From Psilocybe cubensis (lineage: Eukaryota), in the NCBI GenBank assembly GCA_017499595.2, contig CM039009.1, positions 372,001-436,000 of the forward strand: a stretch of 64,000 nt of DNA, written 5' to 3'. The position numbers and the translations under genes are program-made. Positions 11,061 through 57,584 of the stretch are shown here, piece by piece. How positions within the stretch are numbered: the first letter of the stretch is position 1; every line of letters starts with the position of its first letter. The notes under the pieces were generated by a model. That model saw nothing but the letters and a program-made list of their open reading frames with translations, was not told where the DNA came from and searched no databases.

Positions 11061-11597
11061 GTTTTCTCGAGAACGATGCTGCAGACGAGCCAGATTTGTT
11101 ACATGTTGAGTTGATCCGTATCTATTTTTAGATTATCATGCTAATTATAGTCCAGAGTCGCAATGTCCTCCGGGCTGGTTGCAATAGCGTGGTTCTATGC
11201 TTATTCCTCAGACGCGGGATATCGACTTGCGATATTTGTTCCTTACTCCGTGACAGTCAATATAATGTTCAGCTGGGTTTTTAGGACATCAGGAATTGGG
11301 GGATCACACGGTGCCACTTTACCAACAGCGATGGCCAATCACCCACAACCGCAAACAATCGAGTCGATCGTTATGAAGCGTACCCATATCGGAGCATCGA
11401 CGGATGTAGAGCGACCCGAGAGTACATACAGCAAGTCCTCACAGGATATAATTGAGGTGGAGATCAAACAAGTAGTAGAGTCGGTGCACGATCAGCTTAG
11501 TGCATCGGCATATAAGGCTAGTCACTTATCCATGTCTTGATACCTTACGCACATGTCTGGAACATTTATGAATTGACATTTTTTTAATCTCTTCTAT

Positions 11598-20181: not shown

Positions 20182-23100
20182 ATGGCTCAGGCTCTATATT
20201 CGTCTTATGCAGATGTACTTTCAGTTTGCCAAACAATCGAAAACGATCTGGAAGCTGTACTAGATCCACAGACAGGATATGCACCTCGGATGCGGCAGAT
20301 ATGTCAAGAATAGTATGTTTAAGTTAGCCTAGCTATTATACAATACTGAATTCTGTATAGTATTGACCAATTAGAGGACCAGCCCAATAGCCACCAAGCA
20401 AGACATCAAATTGAGGTGTTACGCCTGGAGCAAAATACATGGGGGCTAATACAAGCCGTGTTACCGTGCGCCAATTTGGTTTTCTTGCTCAAACTCGTTC
20501 TGATTTGACTCAGAGCGCGGATAACAAAGTCTGCAACTGTTCCGACTGCACAAGAGTTGTTACTTGACAATCCATACACGCCACCGTCCACGCTCGCGCA
20601 GGCCATACTCAACAACTCTCATACCCTGAAAGAGCTTCTTGCCGTTCGCGAATGGCTGCAAGAAACTGCCCCCGTACCGACACCTCCCGAAGCGAACACA
20701 GGTTACTGGAAATTCACCAAACACACCATTATGCAAGGTGTACGCACAGGGCATGGTCAACGGGAAGGCCTGGTTTCTGAGATGGATCCCGATGCAATCA
20801 ACAGAGGCGATGGGGCTGCATTGGCACCAGACGACGCAGTAGGTTCATGATTAAAATAGCGTCGGATTTTGTTGACTTGCAGGAAGAGCTATGAAAAAAA
20901 CTTGCTACAAGCACTTTACGCATATGTCCGTGCAGGACGTTTGGAAGATGCCGTAGAAGCCTGTCGACGGGCACATCAACCCTGGCGAGCTTCGAGTATC
21001 CGTGGCTCTCTTCTGTTTCAGTGGAACGCTCTTTGTGCGTATTGTGGTCATATTTTGCACATACATCCTCATATTCTTTTAGCAACGTCTCCCATAGACA
21101 GAGAAGACGAAGACGAAGAGGATGAGGAAAGTATCTCCGGGAACCTCTCCAGGAATCTATGGAAATCAACGTGCATACGGGCAGCTCTAAACGTACGTCT
21201 CAGTATCACAGAAAAACAAGCTTCTAAGACCATCATAGCCAGCGTTGTCAGATCATGAACGAGTCCTGTTCGCCGCTATCGCACCTTCCTCACAAACTAG
21301 TTCTATTCTCAAGTCCGCATGCCGAACATGGGAAGACCATCTATGGGCGGAAATCAACATTCTCTGGGAAGAGAAAATCAACCAGGAGCTAGCTCGTCTA
21401 GAAAAGGGGAGCTTCTGGGCTTCCGGTGCCGATTCGCTTGACAAAGGGTTCATCGTCCTCACAGAGGCCGAGATGGTGCAGCGTGAAGAAGAGTGGGAGA
21501 AGGAAGTCACGAAGACGTTGGTCAATCTGGATAGCACTGCTGTTGTCGATGGGCAAGTTAAAACTAGTTTTGATCTTTTCATCACCTTAACCTTCTTTTC
21601 ACAGCCCTCTCGCAGAGCATGCGTTCCATTTCTCTCAACTTCATATTATCCTGGACAAGACTAACAAACTGCTGGACACATTCGCAGAGGATGTGAGGAA
21701 TGGCAAATATCCACGGAGCTCATTTGAGTAATTATTAACCGTTCGTTTATCCGGTTTGAACAATAGCTAACAAAAGCAACAGATATGACTCTATGTGCCG
21801 CTTTTTTGCACATTTTTGCTTATTTTTGCAAATGATTGATATCCCTGTACCATCAATTTCAACACAGACCATTCTGGAAACATATCTTCGAGTCCTTGAG
21901 GTTCGTTATACATCAAGCTCTGACGTCCAAGATGCATGCTTATATGCTGTTTATCTGCAGGAAGCTGGGCAAAGAGAACTTATTGCTTTGTACGCTGGAG
22001 CGCTCAAAACCAACGCAGTTGAACGTTACGCCGACTTCCTCGTCTCGCTGATGCTGGCCGCCGACTTTAACGAGCGCCGCCAGGCACTTGCAAGAGCGAG
22101 CGAACACGGGCTGGACGTCGTGCAAGTGGCAAGAGTCACAGCTGAGAGATCTCTTGACAAAGCTTTCAATGTATGCTTTCTATCTCTTTCCGACTGACTG
22201 CGGCGGACCACGCTGACGGCTATTGCATTACTTCTTACAGATGCTACCTCAGCATGGACGACTGCCAATTGTTACCGACCTACAGCCTCCGCCAAACGAG
22301 GCTGAGACTTTCCTTCTGCGCTCGATTGAATGGACGACGTTTAGAGAGGAGACCTACATCATTGCTCTCGAGCACGCGACAGAAATCATCCGCTACTTCC
22401 TCTGTACGTTGTACACAGTTTAGATTTTTCCTGTGGTCCTCTTTTCTTCCATTAGAATGACGCTGACGCCAAATTTTATTACTTTCTTCTTGACAAGGCG
22501 AGGGCCGTACGCACCCTGCACAAAAGTTGCTTCTCCTCTTACCTGAAGAGCTCGCTGCTATAGCGGAACCGGAGGAGATGGCTACCGAGTACATGCATTA
22601 CAGGCAATTCTTCGGGATTTGGGACGTCTTCAAGCAGATTGTAGAGTGTCAAGCAATGGAGAACAGCATTACCCATGGCCGTGGTGCAAGCAGGGAGGAG
22701 AAGGCGCGATGGATTGCTGAATATCGAGTACGTGCTGCAGGAGGGTAACTCAACACGCTTTCTAATTGATCTTTGAAGGGCCTTGTTGACCAAGCTCATG
22801 ATCAAACCCTCAAACTGTTGACCACAGAGTGGCTCGTCACTGAAGACGACGAGTATGATTCAGGTTTGTTTAATTCTAAGGTTCGGGAATATTTATCTAA
22901 TAATTTCATTAGGAACGGAAGCGAAGGAAAGGCGGCATAGAGATCTAATTAGAATACGACATATATTTGTACCAGAGCTCATTATCAAGTTGCACTATGC
23001 GTTATTCTACTCTCGCAAATATATCCCAGAGTCAGTCATCCATTCTTCGCACTATGCTAACATTCTGATATTAATGTACTTAATGTGTCCAGAAACTTGA

Positions 23101-23603: not shown

Positions 23604-23675
23604 TACACCGAAGGGGAGTCGAACCCCTGCCGCTTGCTTGGAAGGCAAGCATGATAACCGCTTCACCATCGGTGT
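23604..23675 (-). tRNA. tRNA-Gly (anticodon TCC), intronless
   Basis: Cloverleaf: acceptor ACACCGA/TCGGTGT with discriminator A; D arm GTGA..TCAT; anticodon arm CTTGC-CTTCCAA-GCAAG; T arm AGGGG-TTCGACT-CCCCT. Followed by a Pol III T-run terminator. Confidence 0.95.
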
Positions 23676-23792: not shown

Positions 23793-25609
23793 ATGCAGCA
23801 CTTTGGGAAGGCAGCTCTCCGCGTCACCAAAAACTATACAAAAGGGTACTCAGATACGCAAGCAAAGGTTCGCGATGCCACATCCAATGATCCATGGGGG
23901 CCGTCGGGCACCCAGATGAACGAAATTGCACAGTTGACGTACAACCAGTGAGTTGTAACATCTGTTCGCTTCACTTGCGTTGATCAGAGGTCTGATAACG
24001 GTATTCTTGCACAGAAATGATTTCATTGAAATCATGGAGATGATAGACAAGCGTTTGAACGACAAGGGGAAGAACTGGCGCCATGTTTTCAAGGTTGGCA
24101 CTGTGTTACTTGTGGGTTAGACAATAGCTGAATGGCCCCGGCGAATCTTTCTTTCACTTTTGAATGACAGAGTTTGACATTACTGGACTACTGTCTTCAT
24201 CAGGGCTCAGAGAATGTTGTCATTTACTTCCGCGACAACATCTACGTGATCAAGACCCTCAAAGAGTTCCAGTACATCGACGAGGATGGCAAAGATCAAG
24301 GGGCTAATGTGCGACAGAAAGCCAAAGACATAACCAACCTACTCCAGGACGAAAATCGCCTACGCGAGGAAAGAAGAACTCGGGCATCGATGCGAGATCG
24401 AATGATTCGTGGTGCTAATGGCATGGAAAACGACGAACCAATGGACGAAAACGCGAGCAGGAGGACCGGAGGGTTGGCTGGTAAACGGCCTAACCGCGAT
24501 GAAGATGAACTCAGACGGGCGATTGAGGAGAGCAAGAAGTCACTCGCCCAGGAGCGACTAAACGCTGAGGAGAGGGATCTGCAACAAGCGCTCAAACTTA
24601 GTAAGGAAGAGGAAGAGAAGCGGAAGCAAGAAGTGGAAAATTCCAATGCTGCGTCTTTGTTCGACGACTCTAACCAACTGTAAGACCGACTGTATTTTCT
24701 CCTCTCTATGCTAATACTCATCAAAACAGGCCTCCTCCTAATGCCGTCAACAACAATCCTTTCCCGCTCGTCGATCCTACGCCATATGCCGTGGGCCTTC
24801 AGCCACAGTTCACCATCCAGCCGCAATTCACTTCTATGCAACCTCAGTTCACCGCGTTCAATCCATACCAGCAACAGGCTCAAGCAGAACAAGAGGCCGC
24901 GCAGGCCGAGTACTTGCGTCAGCAACAGTTATTCATGATGCAGCAACAAGCTCAGCAGCAGCAACAACAGCAACAGGAGGCTTGGATGCGTCAACAACAG
25001 CTTCTTCAAATGCAGCAACAACAGCAGAATCTTTTTGCACAGCAGCCGTTGCAGGTTCAGCCTACCGGATTCGGGTACGTCGTCTTTCTCTTTTCAGCCC
25101 ACAATCTCACGCGCATTCAATCAACCAGAAACAACAACCCATTTGCGCCGACCTCCCCAGCATCACTCTCACCATCACCACATCCAACAGCACAAACCTC
25201 TCCTACCTTTAACCTTGGTGGTACCTACGACAATCACTCACAGTCCCAACTCTCGTCTCTATCTTCTTCTCCCCAGCCGCCATCTCAACCCCAGTCCCAG
25301 GCCTCTAATCCCCGTCCATTCCATGTCAAAACGCGACAAAATGAGAACGAGGCGTTGGCGGCTCTGTTTGCCGATCGCGAGGGAGGTCAGGACACATTCG
25401 GCAACGTTGGTGCTTTAAGGTGCGTATCGCGGTTTGCGACCCCTGTGTATATTTATCCATTCCTTCTTTTCTGTCTCTTTAGGTACGGCTACACCGATGC
25501 CGGTAAATCGGTCATGGTGATGCAAAAGACTGGATCAGGACACAATCCTTTTGCTAAGCCACAGCAGCAGCAGCAAACCAATGCCGAGAGACCATTCTTC
25601 GACATCTGA
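23793..25609 (+). CDS. ENT1: Epsin (Ent1/Ent2-type endocytic adaptor)
   Basis: ENTH domain (KVRDATSNDPWGPSG, LNDKGKNWRHVFK, DQGANVRQKAK). Two UIM-like repeats (DEDELRRAIEES, EERDLQQALKLS), polyQ tracts, NPF motifs and C-terminal PFFDI. Confidence 0.92.
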
Positions 25610-31992: not shown

Positions 31993-32762
31993 GAGAGCGT
32001 CGGATCGACTGGGAGCGAGGGCCAAATGGACCTGGACCTGGACCTGGACTTGGCCCTCACATGAATCTGGGAATATTTGTCAGATTTTCCCAAGGTCCAA
32101 GGCAAGGTCCATCGTAGGTGTTATTTTAGTGTTACCTTTGCCCGTCATTGCCATTGTGTTTGTGCCACAGCTGACAGAATCTGATAAATAACCAGTAAAT
32201 TACCACTGAATTTAAAAAATTGGATTAAGTAGCTTCTCTAACTCATTATAAACTAGCATGGTACTATGGCATTAATTTTCTAAGTAATCCAAGTAACTCC
32301 CTATATAAATTTGATATAACATTGATCATTCTGAAGAGCCCTAGTATTGTTTAAAGCACTAGAGATTTGGTCAATATTCATAAATATCTAAACAATAATT
32401 CTTCTGGTGATAGAGAACCATTTAAATCTTTTTGAGCAATGCACCACCACAAATGATGTTAAATGCAGTTGAATGAGTCTCAATATGCCGCAAATATTCC
32501 AAGTTCAAGCTGAGTTTCGGCTGAGTTTTCGAGTTTGATCCAATCAGGTGACTCATCCCACAGGTTCCCCTTAAGCTCCATGTTTGTCACTCATGGTACA
32601 ACAACAGGAATATATGTGGAACATATCTAGTCCACTGGAGGTTTACACAAAGGCCATATGTGGGCCACGGTGAGATTTTATCTCGGTCAAGCCCCGAAGT
32701 CCAAGTCCAAGTCTGGGCCACGGTCCATGTTGGACCTGTGACCCAGTCGATCCGACTTTCTG
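31993..32762. mobile_element. hAT-like MITE (770 bp)
   Basis: Perfect 15-bp TIR core GTCGGATCGACTGGG / CCCAGTCGATCCGAC. TSD TGTATTAC at 31985-31992 and 32763-32770 (also readable as 9-bp GTGTATTAC). Subterminal TGGAC(C/T) hexamer arrays, inverted at the two ends. AT-rich non-coding interior. Confidence 0.88.
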
Positions 32763-34606: not shown

Positions 34607-37600
34607 ATGTCTTACGACAAAAGTTTGCTGGAAACATTTATCTCGTTTGCCAGAAATTCATCCACAGTCGAACGCCCCGTCCTGGAATGTGGTTTAGATC
34701 AATGGACATATGGCGATCTAGATGCAATTTCTAGCGGCATCGCTCTGCAGTTATATAAACGATACGGCTCCAAACCGACAGTCGCGGTGGTCAGTGAGAA
34801 CCACCCTTACATCCTCGCTGCCCTTTTGGCTACTTGGAAACTAAATGGGATCTTTGTGCCGTTGGATCCCCACGCCCCTCTGCCTATGATTAGGCAAATG
34901 CTCTTGAATGTTGAAGCAACATGTGTCATAATACCGGAGCGTGAAATCGGCCTCGCTGATTTGCTGAAAGGTGATTTTTTCTCTCTTCTAAGCTTCTTAT
35001 ATTTCTTGAACAATGCTGCAGAATTGAACAAAGGGGCAGTGATTATTGCAAAGGATATGACTATGGTTTCACTCTCCCAACAATTTTTGGACCAAGATGC
35101 AGTTTTACCCCCCTCAATATTCCCTCTCCCTAAATTGACGTCTATGGCCATGTATATTCACACGTCTTCAGCGACATCCGTGGCCAATCTTAAATGTGTT
35201 CAATGGACACACATGATGCTCTCAATAGGCACTGGCTCAGTGGCTATGTGGCTTCATCGAGCCTGGCCCAACGTTGATTTCGATATGGCAAGAATTCTCG
35301 GAGTTTCGCCTTGGAGTCATGCGATGGGATATTTAATCGACATTGGCGGCGGGACCTTTCACACAGGAGGATGTCTCATTATGGCTTCTCCACCCTCCGA
35401 ATATCCCAGTAGCTTGATATATGAAGATCGCGTGAGAAGTATTCTGGGGAAACCTGCATCCGAGATGGATGTCCTGGATCGGCTTTTGGAGACGGCTCTC
35501 CGTTCTAAACCTGATATATTTGCTTGTGTGCCCTGGGTACTAGAAGGTTTCAAAGACAGATACCAAGAATTGTTGGCAAGGAATATGCAAGGAGAAGCCC
35601 TCAGAGTCAAGGAGATGTTGCAACGATTCAGGTGTTTAGGAGTTGGAGGAGCAGCACCCAGTCACGAGCTTCTTCTGTGGGCGGGTGAATTGAACATAAA
35701 AATTGTAGATATGATGGGCATGACTGAAATGGCTCGTAAGTCTTCTCTATACTCTGGTTTTGAATCAAATTATGCATTTATATTCTCCTGTAGGACCTTT
35801 GTTCTTCACGTGGATCGACCATCAGAAGGACCCCGAGGAAAATGCCGGGTATCCATCGGAAGATTGTCTCATAGACGATGCAACTATTGTTTTGCTCGAC
35901 GATGAAGGCAACGAAAATCCAAGCGGTATGTCACATTTAGCATGCTTTCATTATTTGCATGGCATTAATGGGGTCAGAGGGCGAGTTTGTTATAACAAGC
36001 AAAGATTTTACACGCTGCTACCTCAAATACGATAATTCCTGCTTCACCGACTCCGCTGATGGGCGAATCACATTCAGAACAGGAGATCTGTATGAAAGAA
36101 ACCGTTTTGGAAGGTTTGTATGGAAAGGAAGGAAGGAGGATTACATCCAGGTACTCATCTCCTTCCCTAAATTTTTAAATAATGATTTTGAGGAATGCAG
36201 CTGGTCTCCGGTGAATCCTTAGACCCTCGACCAATCGAGAAGGCCCTTCAAACATGTTCGGCAATCGCGCATTGCTGTGTTGTAGGGAACAATTTTTTGA
36301 GAAAATCTTCCGATGTTATATGTCTCATCATCCAACCATCATCCACCTTGGTTCATACCGGGAAAGCGAAATTGTCATCGGAGGATCTGAGTGAGATTAC
36401 TCGTACTCTAGCCTCTATAAATAGGTCTCTGTTGCCGCCTTTGCGAATCGCCTGGTCAAGGGTCGGCATTTTGGACAACGGCGTCGTTATACCATACACC
36501 AAAAAGGGAACGTTGTTCAGAAAGCGATTCCAGGAACTATTCGGGGAATTCATAGAAACTCTACTCCGCAAGGAGTCTAATAACTCTGGCGTTGTTTTCA
36601 GTCAAGATGGTGTAAAGGCTGACAAGGTCGCGCGTAGGTCAGATACAGCCTCAACTTCCGGGCTCTTAAACAGTAATTCGAAGAAAAGCGACTCCACTGC
36701 ATTTAAAGAGCGGGTAGCTGGCTCGTCATCCTCAAGGGAAACAGTTTATGGAGCAGAATTTAATGGTAGATCGAGCAATTGGAAGGTGAAAGAGGCAAAA
36801 CAGTCGGTCGCGGACGTAGTTGGGGGTGTTTTGGGCCTTGATGACAAAACCATGCATGCCAACCTGACCACATCGTTTGCGGAGGTGAATATCTCGTTTT
36901 CTTCTGTGCTCAAACGTCATTCTCACTATTTCATCCTGCTAGCTTGGTATGGACTCAAACATGGCCGTTCGCATTGTCAATAAGATCAATGGTCTTTTTG
37001 GGCTTCAGTTTCCGCTAAACGCTTGCCATAACCTCATCGATTTGAGCATGTTAACGGATGCGACTTTGGTTGAGCTGGGTCTGAAAGATCCAATCAAGCA
37101 GACAATCGAATCAAGAGACTTGCCTCCGCTTCCCAAGTTGGAGGGAGACGATGTGGTCATTGTTGGCCAAGCACTTCGTCTCCCAGGAAATGTCAATACC
37201 CCAAAGTCGTTCTGGGAAGCATTAGTCAATAAACGAGACGACATCATGACTCCTGTACCTGCTGAACGTTGGGATCACTCTTCATTCTACCGCGACCCGG
37301 ACTCCAACTCACCGCCTGAGATTTGTGATATCAGGTTCAAAAAGGCAGGCTTTATCGATTTTACTCATTATGACAACAGCTTTTTTGGCATATCTGGTCC
37401 GGAAGCGTTGCATATCAGCCCCACGTCTAGGTTGGCGCTTGAAACATCGTTCGAAGCCCTTGAGGACGCAAACATACCAATCTCTAAATTGAAGGGGACA
37501 AAAACAGGCGTATTTGTTGGCGCAATGGTAGACGAAGGATTCATCCAACTACTGTTCGAGGAATATGGGTTTGACGGTGCGTGTCGCATTGCTTCCTTCA

Positions 37601-40600
37601 TTTGATATTTGAGTCGAGTACTATGATAGCCTACAATCGCTTTTATGGGACTGGACTTTTCTCAAGTGCCGTATGTGGAAGGCTTAGCTAGTACGTGTCT
37701 TCTTTCAAATTCTAAATTGGAGAGTGAAAAGTCATTTTTGTTAATAGTCTCCTCGACATCCATGGACCTTCTCTTGCAACTGATACCGCCTGCAGTACTG
37801 GTTTAGTGATAGTTGATCAAGGTTCGGAAAGAGTTCATCAAACAAAATGCGCGGAATTAACCCTACTCTAAGCCGTCAAATATATACAATCAGGGGATGG
37901 TGATACAGCTATTGTCACAGCTGTTAATACACACGCCTGGTAAGCACTGGTCTTCTCCTTTGCGTATATCTCAACGTTAATTCAAAAGATGTGGGTAATA
38001 GGCCAGGACAGTTTGGGTAGGTTGCAAAGATTATCTCTTTTCAGCCCCTTTGCTTGTCGTGTGAATATGTTAACCTGATATGTATTAGGTTTATGTCCGC
38101 TCAGAACATGTCTTCTCCGAATTCGCGATGCGCCACATTCACCAATTTGGCTGATGGGTAAATTTGATTCCTTTTGCGAACGATAAGCTGTTCTGACATC
38201 AATTCAGATATGTCCCATCCGAAGCTTCTGTTTCCTTGATTTTGAAATCTAAAAGTGCTGCCATATGTGACCGAGATAACATTCTTGCGGTGATAAAATC
38301 AACAGAGGTTATGCATGGCGGTAGGACTCAAGGCTTAACTGCACCAAGCCTCGATACACAAATTCGCCTCCAACGCTCTCTTCTTGCTAAAGCGGGGTTG
38401 GATCCTTCACATATCCAGTGCGTAACAATTTGCGCTAAAGACATTTATTGACATTTGATATTTTCCTAAAGTCTGCTTGAAACCCATGGGACTGGTTAGT
38501 AGCATTTACTTACTTTAAGCCAATAGGATAAGCAACGATGATATGCTTCTTTAGGGACTATTCTCGGTGATTTGGTTGAGATTCAGGCAATCAATGAGGT
38601 CTTCCGAGGGTCTCATAATGATAAGCCTCTCATACTTGGTGCTGCAAAAACCTGTTTCGGTCACACTGAAATGGCCGCGGGGCTCGTCGGCCTCCTCAAA
38701 ACTGTATACAGTTTTCAAAACGCTGTCGCTCCTGGGTTTGTTCATTTGACCAAGGATAACATGAATCCTTCCATTGATTGCAACATTGTTCCTATACATA
38801 TACCCATCGAAACCACGCCTTTGATTAAAGATGACGTTGATGTTCCTTATCGGGCGCTTGTTCTGTAAGTGACATCAAAGCTTACGTGGATCAACCATAA
38901 CTGACAGTTCGGTTTAGTTCCAATGGCTTCTCTGGAACAATGGCTGGCGTCATTCTTGAACAGACGACCGACAATTTTCAGGCTTCGTTTAATGGAGTCA
39001 ATGATAACTCTGCTGAAGAACACCTGTTAATACCCTTTGTTGTCAGCGCGAAGACTCCAGCTGCATTGGAAAATTATCTGAAGAAGTACCTGGGCTTCTG
39101 TCGAACGGCTTCCGATTCCAATTTCAAGGATATCTGCTATACTGCATGCGTTGGCCGAGAGCATTATCGCCACCGCTTTGCCTGCGTTGTTTCAAACCTG
39201 ACTGACCTTAAGAATCAGCTCGAGGAACGTATCCAATCCCACGAGCACGCACATCATGAGAGCAAATCCGCTACGGGAGGTCGAGTTGCATTTACCTTTC
39301 CCGGTCAAAGTTCACAGTATCAGGGCATGGCCAGCCATCTGGCGAGTTTCTACCCCGATTTTAGAGAGTTAGTAGAGCGCAACGCTACTCTAGCGGATGA
39401 AATGTCTGGCTTTCCCATCAAATCTTTCCTATTAGACAAAGAAACCCTGTACAACCTCACAATCGACGATAGTCGAATTGGCCAGATCTGCATATTCGTT
39501 TATCAGTACTCTATGTCTATCTGGCTCAAAACACTAGGTGTTGAGGCTTCTGCTGCCCTTGGACACAGCTTAGGAGAGATTGCAGCAGTTGGTACGTCGA
39601 AAACGTTTCATGATAATGCCTTTTTGTTAATCACAGATGTAGTCATTGCTGGTACTTTGACTTACAGACAGGGCCTCGAGTTTGTTGTGAGGCGAGCAGA
39701 ACTTCTGTTATCTGACCATGACAAGCCCGGTGGCATGGCCATGATTGCTGCATCAGAGGAGGCTATTACCCATCTTATTAAGCAGTCAGGCTTCCAAAAG
39801 GAGGTCGTCATAGCGGTGTATAATGATTCTGAAAGTCATGTTATATCTGGCGAGCTAACGGCGGTCGAAGAAGTACTGTCTAAAGCCAAACTTGCAGGAT
39901 TACGCGGTACCAAATTAAAGGTTACGCAAGGTATATCTATGTCCAACCAACTAGCATTTAGCTAACATTTTTCAAGGTTTTCATAGTCCAATGATATCTC
40001 GAGCTCTCCCGGATCTTGAAGACTTGACGGCCAAGATGCACCCTTATCAGTCTCGACTGAATATCCCGATCTATTCTACTGTGTACGGTGAAGTCATACC
40101 TGCCGATACGTGCCTTAGTCCTTCCTATTGGGTGCACCATTCCCTTAAAATGGTTCATTTTTGACTTGCTAATATACGCCGTAGGTCGAACACGCTAAGC
40201 AACCAGTTCGACTATCGGAAGCCGCAACAAATCTCCTTATGGACAAAGACGTTGACATCCTCCTCGATGTTGGACCTCAACCCTTCCTACGGACCACTAT
40301 CAAAGCAATTTCATCAGGGAAAGTGTCTCTGGCTACATCCACAAAAACCGGAAATGATCAGATTAGAGCTTATTTGGATGCGCTGACTTCTCTATTTGAA
40401 TGTGGTGTAAATGTGAATCTCGAGAAATTACTTTCAAGGGGTCCTTCATTGGGAAACAAAACGTCCCTTCCTACGTACCCCTTCCAACGGCAGCGTCACT
40501 ATCCGAATATTGTCCCATCCCGGAAAAATGGCCGAATAACATCGAAACCTGCTAATTCTGTCGATGATGCTACTGATATCGAGGACGCCATCCAGGAGGC

Positions 40601-40989
40601 TGGAGCTATTACAACCAACATACTGACGCCACAAGCTTCAGGAAATGACGACCCTGAGGTTATATCAAACACAATTACTCGTATTGTACGGGATGTTCTT
40701 GAACTTCAGTCATCTGAAAATATAGGTCAGTATCATGTTCTCGTGCATGGGATACTTCTCAGCTTTCTGATATGCTATGATTTCATTCGTTGTTCGCAAT
40801 TGGAAAATAGAGTTGGCAGAGTCACTGTCGTCTTTTGGAATTGACTCCATTTTCTTTGCTCAAATCAAGGGAAGAATCATGATAGACATGCATGTCGAGA
40901 TTCCTGACACTATGCTTTCGGATTCACTCACCATTCGACAACTTATACGCTATGTCGTCGACAATACATCGTCTGCAGGAAATTCTTAA
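34607..40989 (+). CDS. hispS: Hispidin-synthase-like NRPS-PKS hybrid: A-ACP-KS-AT-ACP (about 19 exons, about 1750-1800 aa)
   Basis: A domain with HispS-type signatures (PTVAVVSENHPY, HTSSATSVANLKCV, FRTGD, SGESLDPRPIE, PPLRIAWS, TKKGTLFRK). ACP1 LGMDS. KS DTAC (Cys 37791-37793), ETHGTG and GHTEMAAG. AT GHSLGE and GFHS, then LPTYPFQR. ACP2 FGIDS. All 18 introns read in frame. The symbol denotes homology, not proven activity. Confidence 0.9.
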
Positions 40990-41223
40990 TGCATAGTAAT
41001 CTTTGCACTTGGTAGTAGGTTCAATATTTTCTTTGTGTCAGCCCACTTAACCGGATGATAATCGTTCTTAAGGACGTTGAAAATACGGTAGTAACCGCCA
41101 CTCACACAGACGACTGATTGATCTACTTGGTTTAAACTGTGAACATCAATATCTACGATATGCAAGATGCTGGTATATTGGAATTGCAAGATAAAAAAAA
41201 TAGTGTGAAATGAAAACATAATA

Positions 41224-41260
41224 TACGCCAGGCTTTCCGACTACGCCAGGCTTTCCGACT
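41224..41260 (+). repeat. Perfect 18-bp tandem duplication
   Basis: TACGCCAGGCTTTCCGAC x2, immediately 3' of the P450 stop codon. Confidence 0.9.
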
Positions 41261-43633
41261 CACGACCGCGCTCTATGGAATTTGACCCATAGACCCCCCT
41301 AAGTTACAAAAGAACCAAACCGGGAAGATCAGCACTGGTAGATGTGCTAAAAATAGCCAACTTACCTTTACATAAAGGGTCAGGGCAGCACTTGGCCAAA
41401 TCTGCTCGTACGCTTGGCGCCCTTTGCGGTTTTTCCACTCTAATGGGGGCAACGAGCCCTCAGGTTGAAACTCGGGGCAAAGTGTGAATTTATCGAATTT
41501 CTGTAAGAGTCTGACAAGGAAGTACGACATCTCATTGTACGCGTAATTCTGGCCTATGCACTGTGGATGAAGGGGATAGAGGACCCAAGTTAGTTAACTT
41601 TTTCACCGTATCATAAGATATATCCTTATGATGGAATTAAATATAGGGGGAAACACAAAAGGCAACTTACTATGCGAGGGCCAGCACTGAAGGGCGTGAA
41701 TATCGTGGGGTTTGCGACATAACGTGCCACGCTCTCTGGGTCTATCCATCTCTCCGGCTTGAATTCATCGGCATCAGCGCCCCAGTGAGCAGGGTTTCGC
41801 TGGATTAAGAGGGGAAGGTATAGAATGGTCGTTTTTGCCGGCATATATAACGGGCTTTTGGAATCACCAGACCCAGTCGAGAACGTGCAATCTGATGGAG
41901 GGAGAACACATGATGATGTTCGAGTCTCCCGAACGTTGAGCGGTACTGGAGGAAATAGACGAAGAGTTTCATTTATTACGGCACGCACTGAGCAAAAAAC
42001 ATTAGATAGTTGGATGAGTATCAGTCGTTTTATCAACCATGATGGTACGTACTATATTTCATGCGTTTAATATTGTCGAATGTAGGAGGGGAAGTCGGTC
42101 CACAGTACTCCAGAATTTCGGCACGCATCTTCGTTGCAACATCCGGGTGAATAGCAAGGAAATATGTTAGAAACGTCAAAGCACAGGCGGTCTAGAGCTT
42201 AGTCAGGATTGTTATGTCGGGAGAAACAAAGTAACAAACGGTATCGCGTGAAGCAAGCAGCATGCTGGTAAGTTGATCGCGTATTAGTACTGGATCTACT
42301 CGGGTAAATCAGTAAGTTAAGCTGGTACATGGTCTAGATTTCCTTACCATCGGTGCTATCAGTTAGATGTTGCATGAAATTTTTATCGGTTATGTTGTTC
42401 CTAACCCCAGCCTCACTCTTGTTTGACTCCAAGGCTGAACGTACAAGTGGATCCATCCATGCACGTATCACCTTGCAGTGCTCTTCATTCTTGTCCTTGA
42501 ATAGCTCAAACAGTGGCCAGATCGCTCCAAGCCGTCCACGATGCGTTATGTTTAGCTGTGCCATTTCAAATGCACGAGTGAATGATCCCCAATGGTCCTC
42601 GGTAGCCGAGCCCTTTGGTCCCATAGCCGTTTTCCCCGCGACTGGGAGTGATGCGGATAAAGTATCCAAGTTTTTTCCCATAAGAAACTCTGACGCAGCA
42701 TCCAGGGAGAACCGTCCATAGAGGTCTTGGGCATCACAGGCAGTACCCGATGCTTCCAATGACGATAAGATGGATATAGTCCGTGCACAGTGTCGCTCAA
42801 ATAGCTCGAAATCTGAGAACCGTTCTCTTGAAAAAAAAGGCCTGGTCATGTTGCGATGCTAAACCAGGTTAGCGATTACAAGGATGGGGCTCAAATGACG
42901 GACTAACCATTTTCCATTTCTTCAAGAAGGCAACTCAATTTCTGCGTTCCCGAACAACATAGAAAGCGCGTACCTCGTCATCACGGTTGAATATTCCTTC
43001 ACCAAGAAAAAGTTCCCTGGAGTCCGTTTTTCATCAGAAACATTTCCTTTTCGAACCAGGGGTACTGAGACTGACATTCGCTCTTTCTGCGATATGCCCC
43101 GCCAGAACTGTGAAAAACCCGTTGAGGTGACGTATTTAGCGTGCTCTTGATCCATGGATATGATCTATGACCGCCAACGTCAGCATTCAAACCGCGATTA
43201 TGACGTGTGACTTGGTCGCCATTGGTTTCTAGACCAGATGAGAGAGAACACACACATTATCCCGCCACAGCACTCTAAGGTTTAATGTCGTGCATTGGTA
43301 CTCTTCAAAGAGCTCCAAGTATACATCGAGCACATAGCTATTTTTGAAGGCCTTGACCATCCTGAACAGAACGTCGACATTCCCTGGCCATTTCCCGATG
43401 ACACAGGGGATCGTTTTCGCTCCGATGGCACGAGCCTCTTTTTCCTGTTTTGATTCAGCATAGAGACTCTTCAGCGTTCCCCATAACAAAATGAATCCCA
43501 AGTGCGTTGGAATAGATAGAAGCCCTAGCTGATACCCCAATAGCAACAGCACGCTCGAAAGAACAGAAGCAGGTATCACAAATATCCTAAAGCAGTCCCA
43601 GAGAAGTCTAGCCCGGTAATTAGCGGGGTTCAT
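41260..43633 (-). CDS. Cytochrome P450, CYP63-like (CYP52 clan)
   Basis: N-terminal TM, GKWPGNVD, I-helix LLASRDT|T, ExxR (ETLR), FKPERW, heme motif FSAGPRI|CIG split by an intron. Ends GGLWVKFHRARS*. Confidence 0.9.
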
Positions 43634-49054: not shown

Positions 49055-49736
49055 AATTCTTTATCATAGATACCGAATTTTTCGTTTGCGTGGTCCTGTA
49101 CTTACCCGTTTGCAAGTGCCATGCAAAAAGAGATTGGCATATTATTGGAAGATGAAGCGAGTGGTGTGTAGATACTAGAGAAGTCATTTGGTTTGAGCGG
49201 AGAATCCTCCAGCTTGTTCAGAGTGTTTTGAGTGATTGCCGACTTCTTTTGGGAAGCTCTAAAAAGTTGAAATAACCAGTCAATTCTGGGACCCAGGATT
49301 CGAGTCGCCATGGTCCATCATACGACATACAAAATGGGGTATTCTCGAACTCTCCAACCATTGCAAGGTTACGCTGACACGTAGCCAACCAGCCATACAT
49401 GGTTCTGAAAGCCTCTGCTACCCCAGATACGGATCACCCATTCTCCATCAAAATCACGTTCAAAAGACTTTGCGTCCGAGATTTACTGGGGGAAAGCAAA
49501 TATAAAATCATCACAAATCATGTATAATGCCTGTCTTTTTCGTTGCATCAAATAGAGTAGATATGTAGGTGTAAACCTCTATTTTTTACGCCTGGGTACT
49601 ATGTACGTACAAGTTGAGAGTATAAATTTGGTGGCGTTGCCAAGGATCAAATATTTCTCAGCAACACTCGGCAACAATTTCTGGACTGCCGTTTTTGCCA
49701 TCGACAGCGTTGACCACGCGCAATCTCTTCCATGTT

Positions 49737-52700
49737 ATGGAAAACAATCACGAAAATTACCTGCATCATCATAGAGCTACGACCACCTCTGCAATAGACT
49801 TGTCAGTAGGTTTCTCAGCACCCAATTCGCCCGCGCTTGAGCCATCGGACTCGACACTTGCACGACGAAGGAGCTGGGGAAATAGGTTAAGGGAATCTGG
49901 CAGAACCAACAACCTGAGCCCGGACCCGCTTTATCTTGATCTGGATTCAATACAAACGTCGCCGCGCCGGTTGGCGACGACGACAACGACGATTCAGAGC
50001 GGCTCGATGTCGCAGCAAACGCAGGACCGAGACCCCTTTTACGTGCCAAGTGACGAGCGCACTCATCCGTATGCTATCGATTCGACTCGACAGTATACAC
50101 CTCGGGTGCCATCGCACACTTACAGCGACGATTCCTATACGAATCAAATAGCTGGGCCGTCGACGACGTCTCTCGTGCCATCAGGGAGGGGCCACTTTGA
50201 ACATGAGATGGACGATGGGCATAGGGAGGACGACGAAGCTCATTTGACGGCGAACATGTCGCATAGTGGTATGGGGGATCATGGTTCCGAGGGATACAGC
50301 TCGAACGACCCAGAAAACGAGGGTGGTCAGACGCCCCGGTCCCGAAGGCGGACACTGCGATATAGCGTGTCGCCTTCACCGTTGAAGAAGACGGAAACAG
50401 CTATCAAGTCGGTGTCGAAGAACCTGCGGAGAATGTCGTTGCGCGTCGTGAATCTGGCGAATACGGGCTTGGAGGGGCAGCTCAGGCTCGGGGATAATGA
50501 CCAGGACAAAGATAAAAAGCTACAGGATGACGAAGACGACGATGAGCCTCCAATGCCAGACTTGAAGCAGGTTCTACCAATTCGCGGTCGGACACTGGGA
50601 TTCTTGGGACCGGACAGCCGCGTTCGCCTGGCACTATTTAGATTTCTCGTTCATCCGTGCGTTTCCTACGAAACTTTGAAACCGTATGCGACTAATGAAT
50701 ATCTTGCAGTCTAACTGAACCTATGATTCTGATATTAATCGTGTTAAACGCTGCTGTATTAACCGCCCAGGCCTTCCCTTCTCTGACGCTTCCAACTGCA
50801 AACGGCCCAGCGCTTCCACCCATTGTAAAAGGCTACTTTCATTCTTGGACGGACTATGTTCTATTTGTACTCTTTATTGTATTTACGTGCGTCTTTTTTG
50901 TCCCTCATCTTCCAGTCATTGACCAGTATCCACAGGCTAGAAGCTGTTGCTCGCATATGTGTTACTGGATTCTTGTTCGACCCCGAAGTGTCGATGTTCA
51001 CGCTCTTTTCTTCTCCGACAGCACAATCAGAACCATATACCCCAGCACCTGTGCCTACACCAGGCATGGCGCGACCTACAACATTAACGCGTGGCCCATC
51101 TTTTTCGCAACGTCTTTCACGCCTTCAAAAGCGGATTTTCCGCCCCTTTGCGCTCAGTGCACCCCCACCCGCTTCAGTATATCCAATGACCTCGACAGCT
51201 CATGCAACTAGCAATCCTTACCGGGACAACTTAACAAACGGGCGCGCCAACGGTACTGCGGGCGCTGGAATGCATTCCACCCAACGACCGCCCAACACCA
51301 GCTTCCCGCCAGAGAATCATGAACCTACCATACTCTCGATGGCTATGCGCTCGGAGAACAGCGCGAACCACCCGGATTCTATCGCACTTCCTTTCCGGTT
51401 GAGCATTGGTCATCTGCACGATAAAACATCGCGTAATGTGCCTTATCTCAGGCAAAGCTGGAGCAGGATTGATTTTATTGCAATCATTAGCTTTTGGATA
51501 ACATTCGCTTTGGCAATTACGGGCGCCGAGAAGGGTAAATACCACATTGGGGTGTTCAGGGCGATGAGTGTGATCAGAACTGCGAGACTCTTGACGATTA
51601 CTTCAGGTACCACTGTGAGTCTTTTCTACTATACTGTGCTTTGAAAATGTGCTCAATCGATTCCTTAGACTATAATGCATTCATTAAAGACCGCCAGACC
51701 TCTCTTGACGAGCGTGGCTTATTTTGTGCTATTCGCTATGGTCCTATTTTCGTACGTGATCTATATTTATATGTCCATTCGCCTCTAATTATCTCGCAGA
51801 ATTATTGGAGTGCAATCTTTTAACGGTTCTTTGCGACGCACCTGTGTCATTAGCCCAACTCTCGGAGAAGGACCACACCTGCGAGACGGCCAATTTTGCG
51901 GCGGATACATCGACCCTGTGACATTAAATGCGACAGGGTACCTTCAACAAGATAATTCTACGACGACGAGCCCGAAAGGTTACATATGCCCTCTTGGCCA
52001 AGTCTGCATGGTATTTAGATTCTTTATATCATTAATTATTCCATATTCAAATCTGCCATTGCGCAGGAAATCTCTAACCCAAAAATGGGCATTGAAAGTT
52101 TCGATGCGATATACTATTCAGCACTTCAAGTTATTATCGTTGCCACCGCCAATGGCGTAAGTTTCCGCAACTTTGTTGTATAATTTGTCCCCATCTGACC
52201 AAATTTCTATCTAGTGGACTCCTTTAATGTACTCAATGATAGATGCTGAATTCTTTGTCTCGTGTTTTTTCTTCATTATTGCTGTCGTTGTTCTCAACTT
52301 CTGGCTCATCAACTTATTTGTCGCCGTCATTACCAATACCTTCGCTGCTATCAGGTCCGAAACGAAGAAAAGTGCATTCGGAGCTGCTCCGTAAGTGTAG
52401 AAGTGGTTTATTTACCCGTACATTGGCTGAACCTTAAGTTGCCCCCAGACTCATCGCCATCGATAAGGAGAAAGATGACGGATGGGCCATTGTGGATGGA
52501 CGTAAAGCAGTTACAAGATCTAACCCAGCGAGGACCATATATGCCTACACAAAATGGTGCTGGATCATTCTCGCACTCACTGAACTTGTCCTTCAAGCCA
52601 CACGAACTGTCAACGTCTCGCCAATGCACGAAACGTTGATGTTTTATGGTGAAATCGCTATCACCATTGCTTTTGATTTTGAAATTGGTCTTAGAGTCCT

Positions 52701-55700
52701 CGCAACGTTACCGGATTGGAGATCATTTTTTAGACACGGGAATAACTGGCTTGACTCAATTTTTGCCATTGTATCAACAATCATACAAATTCCTGTCATT
52801 CGGCACTCGGCAGTATACCCTTGGTTTACGATCTTCCAGTTGGCAAGGTTCTATCGTGTGATTTTGGTCGTTCCACGCATGAAGCCATTGCTGGTATGAT
52901 TTGTTGCATCTTTTATCCTTCAAGAGTGTCACTCATGTATAATCAATGTCGTAGATGGCGGTGTTCGGTAACATGTACGGTCTTTCGAACATGGCATTGT
53001 TCCTAGTCATCATCAACTATATCGCCGCTTTGGTGGCCGCCCAATTTCTTCGAGGCGATTTTGGAGATGATGTCACTATAAACTTTGGCGAGATTTTCAA
53101 TTCCTTTTTGGCAATGTATCAGGTTTTCTCCTCGGAGAATTGGGTCGACGTTTTGTATGGTGCTGGGATGGCGGAAATGCCTCTTGGGCAGACGGTCATC
53201 GCCCTGATATTCATTTCCGCGTGGATGTTATTTGCAAACTGTGAGTTGTTTTTTGGGTATATTCCTCGGTTCTATCTCTGAATTCCAGTTGTTTCCAGTT
53301 ATTGTTCTCCAAATGTTCATTGCCGTGATCAACGAAAATTTTGAAGTTGCAGAGGAACAGAAGAAGGGGAAACAAGCATCAAACTACTACAGTCAACACA
53401 AAGCTCGACACGGCACAGTCACTTGGCTTAGGCGTTTGAATCCTTACCGATTTGTAAAAGCTAACCCTGAAACAGCCAAAGTGTCGAACTTGCCCTCGAA
53501 CCTCGTTTTGCCTATGCAGAAGACACTGGTGCAAGATTACGCCATCTCTAGAGTTGACTCGAGGACCACAACGGCACCTGTTGTAAGAACTCCTGATTTT
53601 CGTCGTATGTCACCCGTGTTAACATAATTACAGCAAAAATCAGTTCGGAAACGTCGCTTTATGAAGCCTCAACATTACTCGTCGAAATCATTGACTGCAT
53701 TGCAACAGTTATTTGCAGGCGAAGCTAAAATGCAAGATATTCCTATGAATACTTTACATCGCCGACAAGAACCAAGTGCGGATCCTTTTGATGAGGAAAT
53801 GGACCGGCACCTGTAAGTTCTATTATTTATTTTTGTCGAGTACTTTGTAGCGATAATGTATCTCCAGGGAGCTTTTGGCTTCTGTCAACCCGACGGTCGG
53901 CCTTGCAGAAGCTGCAGACGACGAATACCACGAAAGACGGGCTCAGAAGGCTGACTTCATCCGCGACCATCCGTCATATGACAAAGTATTTTGGGTCATC
54001 GGCCAGAAGAATTGGTTGCGCAAACTCTGTCAAAAGGTCGTCCAGCCAGCCAGAGGAGAGCGAATTTTTGGCACACCACCGTCTCCAGTTGCACATCCTA
54101 TTTTCCAACTGGTATTGCTTCTAACTGTCATTGGGGGCATTGTCGTTGAAGGCATCGCTACACCCGCATACCGTCGTCATTATTTTCAGCAATTCGGACT
54201 GATTCGTGGGGCATGGTTCGAAATCGCAGAAGCGGCATTTGGATTCTCCCTTTTTGTCGAATTCATGATCAAAATCATCGCCGATGGGTTCGTTTTCACC
54301 CCAAACGGCTACCTTCTAAGTATATGGAACTGCTTGGATTTTGTGATCATGATTGGGATTATCATCAACGTCACGACTGGTTTGATATTCATCGGTGGAC
54401 TTAGTCGATTTACACGGTCTTTGAAAGCTCTCAGGGCACTCAGGCTTATCACGCTCATCGACAAGATGAGAAACACGTTCCAGACTCTCATCATCTCTGG
54501 AGCAAGCCGGATCTTGGATGCTGCTGTTTTGGCAATCCTATACATGATTCCCTACGCTGTCTGGGGTCTCAATATCTTCAACGGTCGAATGAACCTTTGC
54601 AATGACGGCGATGCCAATGGTGTAGAGGATTGTATTGGAGAGTATGTCAATACTGTTTACGACGATGCTTTTGGCTTCCCTGTTCCTCGGTCCTGGGACA
54701 ATCCATCACCATCCACCACATTTAGCTTCGACTCATTCCGCTCTTCGTTGCTCATTCTCTTCGAGATCGTGTCTCTGGAAGGTTGGATTGATGTTATGGG
54801 TGTTGCGACCAGTATTACTGGGCCGGGACAGCAACCAAGGACCAATGCGTCACAGGCGAATGCCATCTTCTTCGTTATCTATAACCTCATGGGTGGTGTT
54901 GTGATCTTGACACTCTTCATTAGGTAAAGCATGAACATGTTATGTTACAATGGGAAGCAGTTGGCTAACACACAAGTTTAGTATTATCATAGGGAATTTC
55001 AGTTCGAAAACTGGTACTGCTCTTTTGACGAAAGCCCAGCGCGAGTGGATCGACTTGCAGAAATTGTTCAAGAGGCAGAAGCCGTCCAAGCGTCCAAAGG
55101 TTCGACCCACAGGTCGCATAAGGAAATGGTGCTTTGATCGTGCCGTTCACAAGCATGGATGGTGGTCTAGAGCAACTACATTGTTGTTCGTTCTTCACAT
55201 TATCGCGTTGATGTATGCCATATCCAGCCTTCCTTTAAACTTTCATCTAGGCTAATTGCATTTTCAGGACACAATCATTCTCTACAACCGCCAACTTGGC
55301 AGAAACCTTCCGAAGTACGTTGGGGGGCTCTTTCATTTACGGTCTCCTTGAAGCTGATATCGTTATTCATAGACGACTTCTTCCTTGCTCTCATGTTCAT
55401 TTTTCTTGTGGATGTCTTCATTCGGTGGTTTGGCCTCGGATGGCGAAGCTTCCGTGCGAACGGCTGGAATCTTTTTGATATGGTAGTTGCCAGCGGAAGC
55501 TTTATAACCACCCTTATTGTCCGCTTCGGTCACAGCGGGTACGGCACACAACAACTACAAAAGTTGTTTTTGGTCAGCATCGCATTCAAGCTCGTGCAAC
55601 GTACCAACAGCTTGAATATGCTCTTCAAGACCGCGGTGTAAGCTTAACAACCCGTTACCTCGTCTCAATGGGGCAATGACTGACTGACTGACGAACCGCT

Positions 55701-57584
55701 TTCTATTTCTGTTTTCAGGTCAAGTCTTCCGGTCATCTTCAGCCTGTTGGGCCTATGGCTCGTGTTATTCATCTTCTTCGCGATCTTATACATGGAAGTT
55801 TTCGGATTAACGAAATGGGGTGGAGCGGAGACGCCGACCACAAATTACTCTTCGTTGGGATCAGCACTTGTGATGCTTGCGTTCCAGAGTACTGGGTGTG
55901 TTGCCTTACTTCTTCACATTCCCATTGATATTAACATTTCTGGAACGTCAGCGAGGGATGGAACCAGTACATGCATGATTAGTAAGAGAATTTCTCTTCA
56001 CCCTGGGTCCACCCCAAACTTATTTTTGCATTTAGTGATCTAACTTACCCGCGATGCACTGAATCTCCAAATGAGTCTGAGTCGGATTGTGGAAGTACCG
56101 CATGGGCATTTACACTATTTATTGCCTGGAATCTGCTCAGCATGGTAAGCAGCCATTTTCCCAGCATTTGGACATGATGAATTGCTCATGCTCGTTAATT
56201 ACAGTACATCTTTGTCAACATGTTTACTGGTAAGTTTCTTGTATTTTCCTAAATCTAGCCGCGGTCTTCATAGACGTTTTCCTAGGTGTGGTCGTCGAGA
56301 ATTTCTCCTATGTGTTCCAGGCTTCGGGCAGCGGGTCTAAGTCAATCTCGAGAGAGCAAATGCGTTCATTCAAAAAGATATGGGGCGAATTTTCGAATCA
56401 GAAAACTGGTTACCTCGAGCGTCACCGTTTCGCAGCGTTTTTTCAGGTATGATACGTCAATTGTTTTCCAAATTGTCATGGCTTAGTTGAACCCCTGCAG
56501 AAACTCACTGGAGTGTTTGAAGTTCGCATCTACCCAGCCGAGTATAGCGTCCGGAATATACTCAGCGTCTGCAAAGATCCTTTAGACAAGAAAGCCTGGG
56601 GCTCTCGTGTGGTGGATGGTGTTGACCTCAACAAATTGGAATCAATCGTAGATGGCATTGACTACGCTGACGTGCGGAAGCGGAAGGCCATATACAGACG
56701 CCTCTACCATGAAGCCAGCATATCACACGAGCAAGGTCTAGGAATATCTTTTACTGACATGCTTACCCTTCTGGCACATCATAAATTGATTGTTGATGCA
56801 GAGGCATTGGTGTAAGTGACATCTCTTTCTTCTAGTTGACTTTGACTGACGTATTTTTGATAACCAGCTTACAAGACCTAGTTGTGCGGACAGAGACGAA
56901 CAAATTGGTCACTGATCTTGTCAACTTGGATCGTGTGCGCTCGCTGTTGAAGACAATCTCGTATCGGCGACGTTTTCTGGCGCATCTTGAGAGAAAACGG
57001 GCCGAGAAATATGAGCAAGGTTGGTCGTTCTCTACCCTGATTTTCTAAAGAAGACGTCTAATCGAATCCCTTTAGACATCCCTTCCATCGTGGTCGAAAC
57101 GATGCCAGGGACGCCCCCCATGTCGTCGCGTGATATCTCCAGTGCTGGATTTGGTGATCATTCATTCTCACCAGGAAGCCCGACACCTGTCCCCTTGAAT
57201 CCTCGATACAGTCATGCAGATTATTCTCTCGCGATGGACACATCGTCCGGACCGAAGCTGCAACGTAGCAGTCGCCGTGGAAGTGATTACAGCACATTCA
57301 CAGCCGACACCTTCAGGTCGCCGTATGTTTATCTCTACTTTTTAATTCAATTACCCGCGGGTTTAACTCATTTCTTTTTGCTCCTGTTCTATCTATCAGA
57401 CGAACATCTCTGGTTGATGATGATCCGCAAGATGTCGTAAATGCCATGCAGAGTTCAGTTTGGGGAGGTAAGAATCTAATCCATCAATCATGGGATTTTG
57501 AGAGACAATCGAGCTGATACTTCTTCCTACGCAGATCTTATGATGGAGGTTGCAGAAGAGGAAAAAGGCAACAAAGGCTTTTAA
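49737..57584 (+). CDS. CCH1: Four-repeat voltage-gated-like Ca2+ channel Cch1
   Basis: S4-like segments ([25 protein letters not shown]). Pore loops TANG|W, SSENW, SLEGW and STG|EGW give the N-E-E-E filter typical of Cch1. S6 motifs [17 protein letters not shown] and NMFTGVVVENF. Confidence 0.95.

Follow-up and report, generated by a model that had tools for sequence, protein, structure and literature searches.

Probable separate origin of a hispidin synthase-like domain layout in a Psilocybe cubensis hybrid synthase encoded beside a CYP63 cytochrome P450

The synthase and P450 genes

The window, a 64,000-nucleotide stretch of the Psilocybe cubensis genome, includes two genes arranged tail-to-tail among housekeeping neighbors: a hybrid synthase gene, here PKS, and a cytochrome P450 gene (Table 1). 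The PKS gene model has 18 introns, all GT-AG, with the frame open across the gene, and its product is identical to the P. cubensis UniRef entry A0A8H7XR57. A Pfam scan of the protein detected AMP-binding, two PP-binding, KS N- and C-terminal, and AT domains, but, even at a threshold as loose as E=1, no KR, DH or TE; the same scan detected KR and DH_N in the reducing paralog of the genome. The adenylation domain has an ANL fold with Ala, rather than Asp, directly after the A4 His. The catalytic motifs all are intact, comprising Cys-His-His in KS, GHSLG and GFHS in AT, the latter of which we take to be malonyl-type, and both ACP serines. The LPTYPFQR motif begins at residue 1644 and is followed by 138 residues, compared to tails of ~790-1010 residues in full-length reducing relatives and ~120-135 residues in most HispS models. 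The protein is ~745 residues shorter around the post-AT linker than its Galerina relative.

Table 1. Features of the PKS-P450 locus (positions are those of the window)
Feature	Position	Strand	Details
Non-reducing A-T-KS-AT-T hybrid synthase gene	34607..40989	+	19 exons, 1788 aa
Adenylation domain (aa 19-585)	34661..36572	+	Pfam; model pLDDT 89; fold search; alignment
First carrier domain (T/ACP), GMDS serine	36804..37020	+	Motif reading, Pfam
Ketosynthase: Cys (DTACS), His (ETHGTG), His (GHTE)	37147..38748	+	Motif reading, Pfam
Acyltransferase, GHSLG and GFHS	39291..40304	+	Motif reading, Pfam
Post-AT linker (LPTYPFQR) and short spacer	40467..40643	+	Putative site of DH-KR deletion
Terminal ACP, GIDS serine, interrupted by intron 40726-40810	40644..40974	+	Pfam; spliced joint in run X1
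Convergent intergenic gap, 270 bp	40990..41259	.	Perfect 18-bp tandem repeat, 41224-41259
CYP63-family P450 gene	41260..43633	-	10 exons, 592 aa; joints in X1 and X2; homologs

Runs X1 and X2 were taken to be RNA on account of the spliced joints that they contain, no run being recorded as RNA. In RNA-like contigs, four of the 18 PKS introns were recovered as spliced joints and two further junctions had loose-end support, and eight joint rows in X1 and X2 cover all nine introns of the P450 gene. Both genes thus are spliced in the same two runs, which belong to one study and whose contigs do not rank expression levels. The joint between the post-AT exon and the last ACP exon, in which 85 nt are skipped, is present in X1 and was not found in the DNA-like runs X3 and X4. 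As the joint leads directly into the last ACP exon, a gene-model artifact was ruled out as the cause of the missing DH-KR segment, and the A-ACP-KS-AT-ACP architecture devoid of DH, KR and TE that had been outlined in a preliminary description of the locus is borne out by gene model, Pfam scan and splicing alike. The strain differences listed for PKS comprise 14 synonymous and 12 missense changes and no stop; half of the 12 amino-acid differences are situated in the post-AT linker and spacer.

The P450 protein is identical to a P. cubensis record (P0222) and carries the ExxR, PERW and heme Cys motifs. Its I-helix sequence, ASRDT, is common to agaric orthologs, with AGRDT in distant members. 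Full-length identity is 59-75% to the 44 listed relatives that score best behind the P. cubensis record, most of which bear CYP63 names as automatic database labels. By sequence, the protein is assigned to the CYP63 family, sharing the family name with Phanerochaete CYP63A2 and retaining P450 motifs intact. The predicted convergent CYP63-like gene ~270 bp away therefore was confirmed, the stop-to-stop gap being exactly 270 bp. The locus already is known. The HispS-like NRPS/PKS and CYP pair of Psilocybe, the absence of luciferase and the idea of a relic are in print (Doerner et al., 2022; PMC9400892), according to which P. cubensis has one copy of the locus, the genomes lack a luciferase gene, and the pair is adjacent in four of five Psilocybe species, the synthase gene being absent from P. 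mexicana. The same domain order and adjacent P450 are evident here, but the P450, which those authors call similar to H3H (PMC9400892), is a CYP63, whereas H3H resembles flavin-type 3-hydroxybenzoate 6-monooxygenases, and the trees described below oppose the idea of a relic. The only addition made here is the convergent origin proposed for the layout.

Phylogenetic position and chromosomal neighborhood

HispS produces hispidin from caffeic acid and two malonyl-CoA. The HispS proteins of N. nambi and M. crocata (Myccro1_1113364) resemble PKS in domain order, in the lack of DH, KR and TE, and in the short post-AT tail, but belong to a separate clade with other pocket letters. PKS is 56% (A), 67% (KS) and 53% (AT) identical to Galerina GALMADRAFT_232329 compared to 36, 53 and 39%, respectively, for M. 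crocata HispS; across HispS proteins the ranges are 35-39% for A and 52-56% for KS. In trees of KS+AT and of the A domain alike, PKS falls within a fully supported group of reducing DH-KR hybrids from Galerina, Gymnopilus, Flammula and Pholiota, here termed type A. SH-aLRT support for this position was 100 in trees of 58 and 26 rows, support was 100 in the A-domain tree, and a mixture-model tree gave 100/100; the 58-row tree was built by a quick method and the careful mixture-model tree covers 16 rows. The HispS anchor in the trees (P0049) is the published M. crocata cluster gene named above, and the five-domain Psilocybe gene that they include is that of P. cubensis. AU tests rejected a grouping of PKS with HispS (p 0.00039 in the 26-row tree; p 0.000116 in the A-domain tree). 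The A, KS and AT domains hence are placed with type A hybrids and outside the clade of luciferase-cluster hisps genes. The type A hybrids (Galerina GALMADRAFT_232329, Gymnopilus dilepis, Cyclocybe, Pholiota, Flammula, Hebeloma) are the kin of PKS in every tree and occupy the same chromosomal neighborhood, but retain the ~745 residues of DH-KR that PKS lacks; the Flammula, Hebeloma and Agrocybe chaxingu models are incomplete. From these sequence comparisons, the HispS-like layout of PKS very probably was reached separately from that in luminous fungi. The terminal branch of PKS is long (0.46-0.53), and departures from conserved columns number 7/102 in A, 9/144 in KS and 3/74 in AT, of which the KS and AT counts are within the range of type A relatives. 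Separately, a 1405-aa Mycena venus protein (P0054) that first was labeled KR-less was left out of the reduced trees because its place is among reducing genes and it shares a cluster with a protein of 2366 aa.

The P. cubensis genome also harbors an intact reducing hybrid of a second type, type B, at C12:464885-473276, followed by a ThrE-family gene and then by a remnant (C12:478437-481663) that has in-frame stops, scores best to type A proteins and is ~65 kb from PKS. The remnant and PKS share two short KS matches at the DNA level (67-71%), too few for direct parentage, and the link between them as parent and copy therefore rests on both being type A. Gene order in relatives was read from accession order, which is a proxy only. 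By this measure CYP63 is 9-37 entries from the hybrids, near but not adjoining, in each of the eight relatives with both on one contig, and none of these eight relatives, all outside the genus, has a hybrid adjoining CYP63. Similarly, nine metagenome CYP63 loci, five of which hold at least 1.7 kb downstream, gave no PKS match. The sole M. crocata match of the window P450 (KAJ7159959, 64% identity) does not share a scaffold with the cluster cyp450 (KAJ7112867), a 522-aa protein encoded head-to-head with hisps, and in none of six Mycena species with both genes listed were a HispS-clade gene and CYP63 on contigs of equal size. Judged by these placements, the window P450 is not an ortholog of the luciferase-cluster cyp450, the two being told apart by locus and scaffold.

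Proposed history and chemistry of the locus

The pocket letters of the PKS adenylation domain, at positions presumably equivalent by motif analogy, are unlike those of HispS and of most reducing relatives. A Glu that precedes xGGA in all 10 HispS-clade rows covering the column is Gly in PKS, Met and Arg occur where HispS has Gly, and conserved sites are changed elsewhere in the domain, for example G to C417 and W to V216. The Arg also is found at that column in a Pholiota type A protein. A fold search returned aryl-, amino- and fatty-acid enzymes alike at 15-20% identity, including acyl-ACP synthetase and CAR, and named no substrate. Searched against PDB sequences, the A-domain exon gave nothing significant, and a first homolog search with the A domain alone matched only PKS itself and distant bacterial NRPSs.

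The explanation that we favor, with some reservation, combines independent DH-KR loss in a local duplicate, an unreduced pyrone product and a CYP63 gene that is an older neighbor. Agaricineae carry reducing hybrids in tandem, in the order type B, transporter, type A, some 9-37 genes from a CYP63. In Psilocybe the type A gene probably was duplicated such that the copy ended tail-to-tail with CYP63; this copy would have shed DH and KR in an event separate from that in luminous fungi, and the parental copy would have decayed since in the P. cubensis genome. This origin is well supported by the sequence comparisons. The A domain would adenylate a starter acid that has no alpha-amine and most likely is of the aryl or cinnamate type, and load it on T1; KS and AT would extend it on T2 by repeated malonyl addition, probably in two rounds; and, since KR, DH and TE all are missing, the triketide would stay unreduced and self-release by lactonization as a 4-hydroxy-alpha-pyrone. 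By analogy, the chemistry of PKS probably is the same as that of HispS, although not necessarily on caffeic acid and with no light made. PKS is somewhat more apt to be an active pyrone synthase than not, but hispidin is unlikely to be its main product.

The possibility that the two genes are a relic or precursor of a luciferase cluster, as initially proposed, is highly improbable. The five-domain layout is that of HispS and the P450 adjoins PKS as in the clusters of Mycena and Armillaria, but in luminous Agaricales hisps is linked to luz and h3h and to a different P450 in a different orientation. The AU tests, the separate scaffolds of the two M. crocata P450 genes and the six Mycena species all oppose such a history, as do the replacement of the conserved HispS pocket Glu and the finding that true HispS scores better on the type B A-domain exon than on the PKS exon (227 versus 162 bits). 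Pfam profile searches found no luz- or h3h-like gene near the locus, in agreement with the preliminary description: PF17648 gave no candidates in the genome, a weak test as the genome is intron-rich; none of 20 PF01494 matches, from a scoring of 19 of the 39 candidates, was on the PKS contig; and PF01557 matched no closer than ~0.7 Mb from the locus. As the trees indicate that the layout arose separately, PKS does not represent what remains of a vanished bioluminescence, and the relic proposal fails because PKS is outside HispS and the P450 is not of the cluster type. Alternatively, PKS might be a transcribed but catalytically poor duplicate heading for loss, which is improbable. The long terminal branch, the altered A-domain sites, the absence of the gene from P. 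mexicana (PMC9400892) and the inactivity of three reducing homologs from which DH-KR was removed artificially (PMC9866795) are consistent with this idea. As those truncations gave no light, the five-domain layout is no guarantee of pyrones. However, every catalytic motif of PKS is intact, the KS and AT departures are unexceptional for type A, synonymous differences outnumber missense between strains with no stop among those listed, and PKS was kept while the parent copy decayed.

Other alternatives accept an active synthase. A young two-gene pathway, in which the pyrone of the truncated synthase is hydroxylated or coupled by a CYP63 recruited from the neighborhood, is doubtful. Retention of the pair in four of five Psilocybe species (PMC9400892) is as compatible with recruitment as with passive synteny, spliced joints of both genes were recovered from the RNA-like runs X1 and X2, and CYP63A2 is able to oxidize aromatic as well as aliphatic substrates. 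Against this, the P450 is 71-75% identical to six orthologs in related agarics, five of them from species in which the P450 does not adjoin a PKS, and so bears no sign of a new role, and tail-to-tail genes have no common promoter. The PKS part of a minimal styrylpyrone pathway is plausible from the sequence, but the wide distribution of CYP63 and its lack of adjacency to the hybrids in relatives weaken the case for the P450 as a dedicated tailoring enzyme; most likely it is an older resident of the neighborhood. A non-cinnamate starter or another chain length, yielding an alkyl-pyrone or other lactone that would suit a lipid-oxidizing CYP63, also is unlikely. The Met and Arg of the pocket and the acyl-ACP synthetase and CAR fold matches would accord with such a product, but nnHispS and hsPKS, whose activities were measured, accept hydroxycinnamates (PMC9866795), and the pocket Arg is shared with the Pholiota protein. 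Dim light was obtained from hsPKS, a reducing relative, with acids of the cinnamate type (PMC9866795). The most far-reaching proposal, that PKS is a second, independent hispidin-type synthase that arose by duplication of a reducing hybrid, deletion of DH-KR and retuning, with CYP63 recruited for tailoring and a styrylpyrone convertible to light by H3H and Luz, is distinctly unlikely.

Implications

The five-domain layout alone identifies neither HispS nor lost luminescence. In the proposal of Kotlobay et al., pyrone synthesis was favored when KR and DH were lost, as a step toward fungal bioluminescence. The PKS described here, a naturally truncated and expressed enzyme whose reducing parent type is intact in sister species, offers a direct test of that domain-loss idea. 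If PKS were such a second hispidin-type synthase, nature would have repeated the step with which fungal bioluminescence is proposed to have begun, and HispS-like enzymes for self-glowing plants and yeast could be drawn from a new source.

Structure and expression of the gene pair

The A-ACP-KS-AT-ACP layout without DH, KR and TE domains that was recognized in the preliminary description, together with a convergent CYP63-like P450 gene ~270 bp away, was verified. Within DNA of basidiomycete character, the spliced polyketide synthase (PKS) gene encodes a protein that matches UniRef entry A0A8H7XR57 of Psilocybe cubensis at every residue. Pfam scanning with the threshold lowered to E=1 detected A, T, KS, AT and T domains and otherwise nothing of note; the same kind of scan detected KR and DH_N in the reducing paralogue of the genome. 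The protein possesses 138 residues after the LPTYPFQ motif versus 882 in the nearest Galerina relative. The P450 gene is on the opposite strand with the two stop codons separated by 270 bp. The locus is real and was reported previously: an A-T-KS-AT-T hybrid with a neighboring P450 gene was described in four of five Psilocybe species (PMC9400892; Doerner et al., 2022).

Features of the window and, where prefixed C12, of the same P. cubensis contig
Feature	Position	Strand	Details
EF-G gene	800-2805
Small multi-helix membrane protein genes (two, similar, tandem)	7478-8406; 9825-11540		no Pfam match in the single scanned frame
Short-chain dehydrogenase gene	13228-13914
Inositol-monophosphatase-family enzyme gene	15570-16320
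Nup84/107 gene	20509-22197
tRNA-Gly	23604-23675
ENTH protein gene	24168-25609
Element of ~770 bp	31994-32761		1.8 kb upstream of PKS; imperfect terminal inverted repeats of ~65 bp (76-78% complementary); possibly an old miniature transposon
PKS gene	34607-40989	+	18 GT-AG introns; open frame of 1788 aa
Clustered strain differences	40572-40646		spacer where DH-KR was lost; two alleles in one run
Perfect 18-bp tandem duplication	41224-41259		directly after P450 stop, within P450 3' UTR
CYP63 P450 gene	43633-41260	minus	592 aa; identical to P. cubensis CYP63 entry
Ion channel gene	49626-57440
Intact type B reducing hybrid	C12:464885-473276		52 kb beyond PKS
Decayed reducing hybrid fragments (KS, post-AT linker, DH, KR, ACP)	C12:478437-481663 (L015 about 5400-8700)	minus

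Spliced joints were recovered for four of the 18 PKS introns, including the last, in RNA-like runs of one study (all four in X1, one in X2). Joints for the P450 introns also were present in two RNA-like runs of one study, and spliced joints were absent from two DNA-like runs. Of 73 strain differences, 40 were listed; 26 of these lie within PKS exons (14 synonymous, 12 missense, no stop), a partial count whose pattern points to constraint. Half of the 12 missense changes map to the linker that marks the deletion site.

Relationship to the luciferin cluster

The best 120 of 5137 matches in a full-length homologue search gave, with the query counted, 54 fungal hybrids, and every one was used; the top matches were reducing enzymes of Galerina, Gymnopilus, Cyclocybe, Agrocybe, Pholiota and Flammula. 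The KR-less match P0049, which corresponds by accession to the hisps gene published for the Mycena crocata luciferase cluster (PMC11527772, Table 3), anchored the clade of true hispidin synthases (HispS). In a KS+AT tree of 58 rows (the 54 hybrids, a stand-in for the paralogue of P. cubensis and three bacterial outgroups; quick LG+G4), 11 KR-less Mycena and Armillaria proteins formed a single clade (support 100) and the window protein fell in a separate eight-member clade (support 100), named type A. Grouping of the window protein with HispS was rejected for both KS+AT (AU p = 0.00039) and the A domain (AU p = 0.000116) with 26 rows each, and a mixture-model tree of 16 rows with bootstrapping agreed (support 100/100). 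The order of deeper branches among the clades was not resolved in the trees. As the window gene is nested among DH-KR-bearing relatives, it represents a separate loss of DH-KR wherever the root lies. A putative twelfth KR-less protein, P0054, proved to be a short model of a truncated reducing gene. The Flagelloscypha protein P0075 (1220 aa) is a KR-less KS-AT-T protein on a long branch outside both HispS and type A; it has just 110 aa after the post-AT motif in a model without most of the A domain, and possibly constitutes a third case of independent loss.

The locus had been proposed to be a relic of lost bioluminescence, tentatively in PMC9400892, in which no luciferase gene was found, and, as one of two alternatives, a relic or precursor of the luciferin cluster in the preliminary description. 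The PKS shares the HispS layout but is not a member of the HispS clade, and this reading is to be dropped. Our searches found no luz-, h3h- or cph-like genes close to the pair, although the blank PF17648 result is weak evidence alone. Nor did the P450 stand as a cluster member. The cyp450 of the M. crocata cluster encodes 522 aa and is head-to-head with hisps (PMC11527772), whereas the window P450 of 592 aa is tail-to-tail with PKS. Among the matches listed, the sole M. crocata counterpart of the latter is a 590-aa CYP63 on a different scaffold (64% identity). By exclusion, rather than by alignment with the cluster sequence itself, the window P450 therefore appears not to be the cluster P450. 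As H3H resembles 3-hydroxybenzoate 6-monooxygenases (PMC6294908), the P450 is not homologous to H3H either. The cluster of luz, h3h, cyp450 and hisps in its ancestral form was assigned to the mycenoid-marasmioid ancestor (bioRxiv 2020.05.06.079921).

Part of the present grouping may already be visible in the KS tree of PMC9400892 (Fig. S3). A literature search, with subscription journals mostly outside its coverage, retrieved no other relevant paper on the PKS gene and none on convergent loss. Taxonomically, Psilocybe falls outside the mycenoid-marasmioid lineage.

Origin of the pair

Ordinary genes surround the pair with no sign of a larger cluster in the window. Eleven Agaricineae possessed both a hybrid and a CYP63 among the matches listed, on contigs of equal length in eight; the others were Cyathus and two with short contigs, Pholiota and Agrocybe chaxingu. 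In those eight, the genes were separated by 9-37 accession steps and adjacent in none, accession order being a proxy for gene order (25 steps versus 12 by locus tags in one Agrocybe assembly). A PKS match was absent from nine metagenome CYP63 loci, several probably from one organism, of which five hold at least 1.7 kb downstream; in two, the 5' neighbors of CYP63 are the same as in the window. Therefore, CYP63 is an old resident of the locus and PKS a newcomer.

The intact type B gene, of the second class of reducing A-T-KS-AT-DH-KR-T hybrids, is followed by a ThrE-family gene and then by the decayed fragments, which contain in-frame stops (five in the longest match). The fragments match type A best (summed bits of 357 to Galerina 232329 versus 163 to the type B gene of P. 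cubensis). In Galerina accession order, type B is ten entries beyond CYP63 and type A two further, the same order as in P. cubensis. From this shared order and the type A remnant, the preferred inference is that the window gene arose by duplication of the type A gene; the remnant is too eroded to match the window gene directly. A decayed type A hybrid also would explain why PMC9400892 counts one reductive hybrid in P. cubensis versus two paralogues flanking a transporter in other Psilocybe species. For P. mexicana, that paper gives four hybrids in Table 1 versus two in Table S2.

Predicted activity and significance

All catalytic motifs are present in PKS, and modeling with a fold search assigned the ANL fold to its A domain. 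By analogy with HispS, as which the enzyme probably works, the A domain would adenylate a starter acid that would be extended by two malonyl units and released by lactonization. An amino-acid starter seems unlikely as the Asp after the A4 His is absent. Compared with HispS, Gly replaces a conserved Glu in the pocket and Met and Arg replace two Gly, and thus caffeic acid is not a safe guess. Three truncated reducing homologues produced no light, which counts against activity, but full-length hsPKS gave dim light with a preference for coumaric acid (PMC9866795), and a DH-KR-bearing relative in Sanghuangporus was tied by expression to hispidin (PMC10621269). CYP63A2 accepts alkanes, alkylphenols and polycyclic aromatics (reviewed in PMC4950769), a range that would neither demand nor exclude a pyrone role for the window CYP63. 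The remaining interest of PKS is as a natural, independent DH-KR deletion that is usable to test the domain-loss hypothesis.
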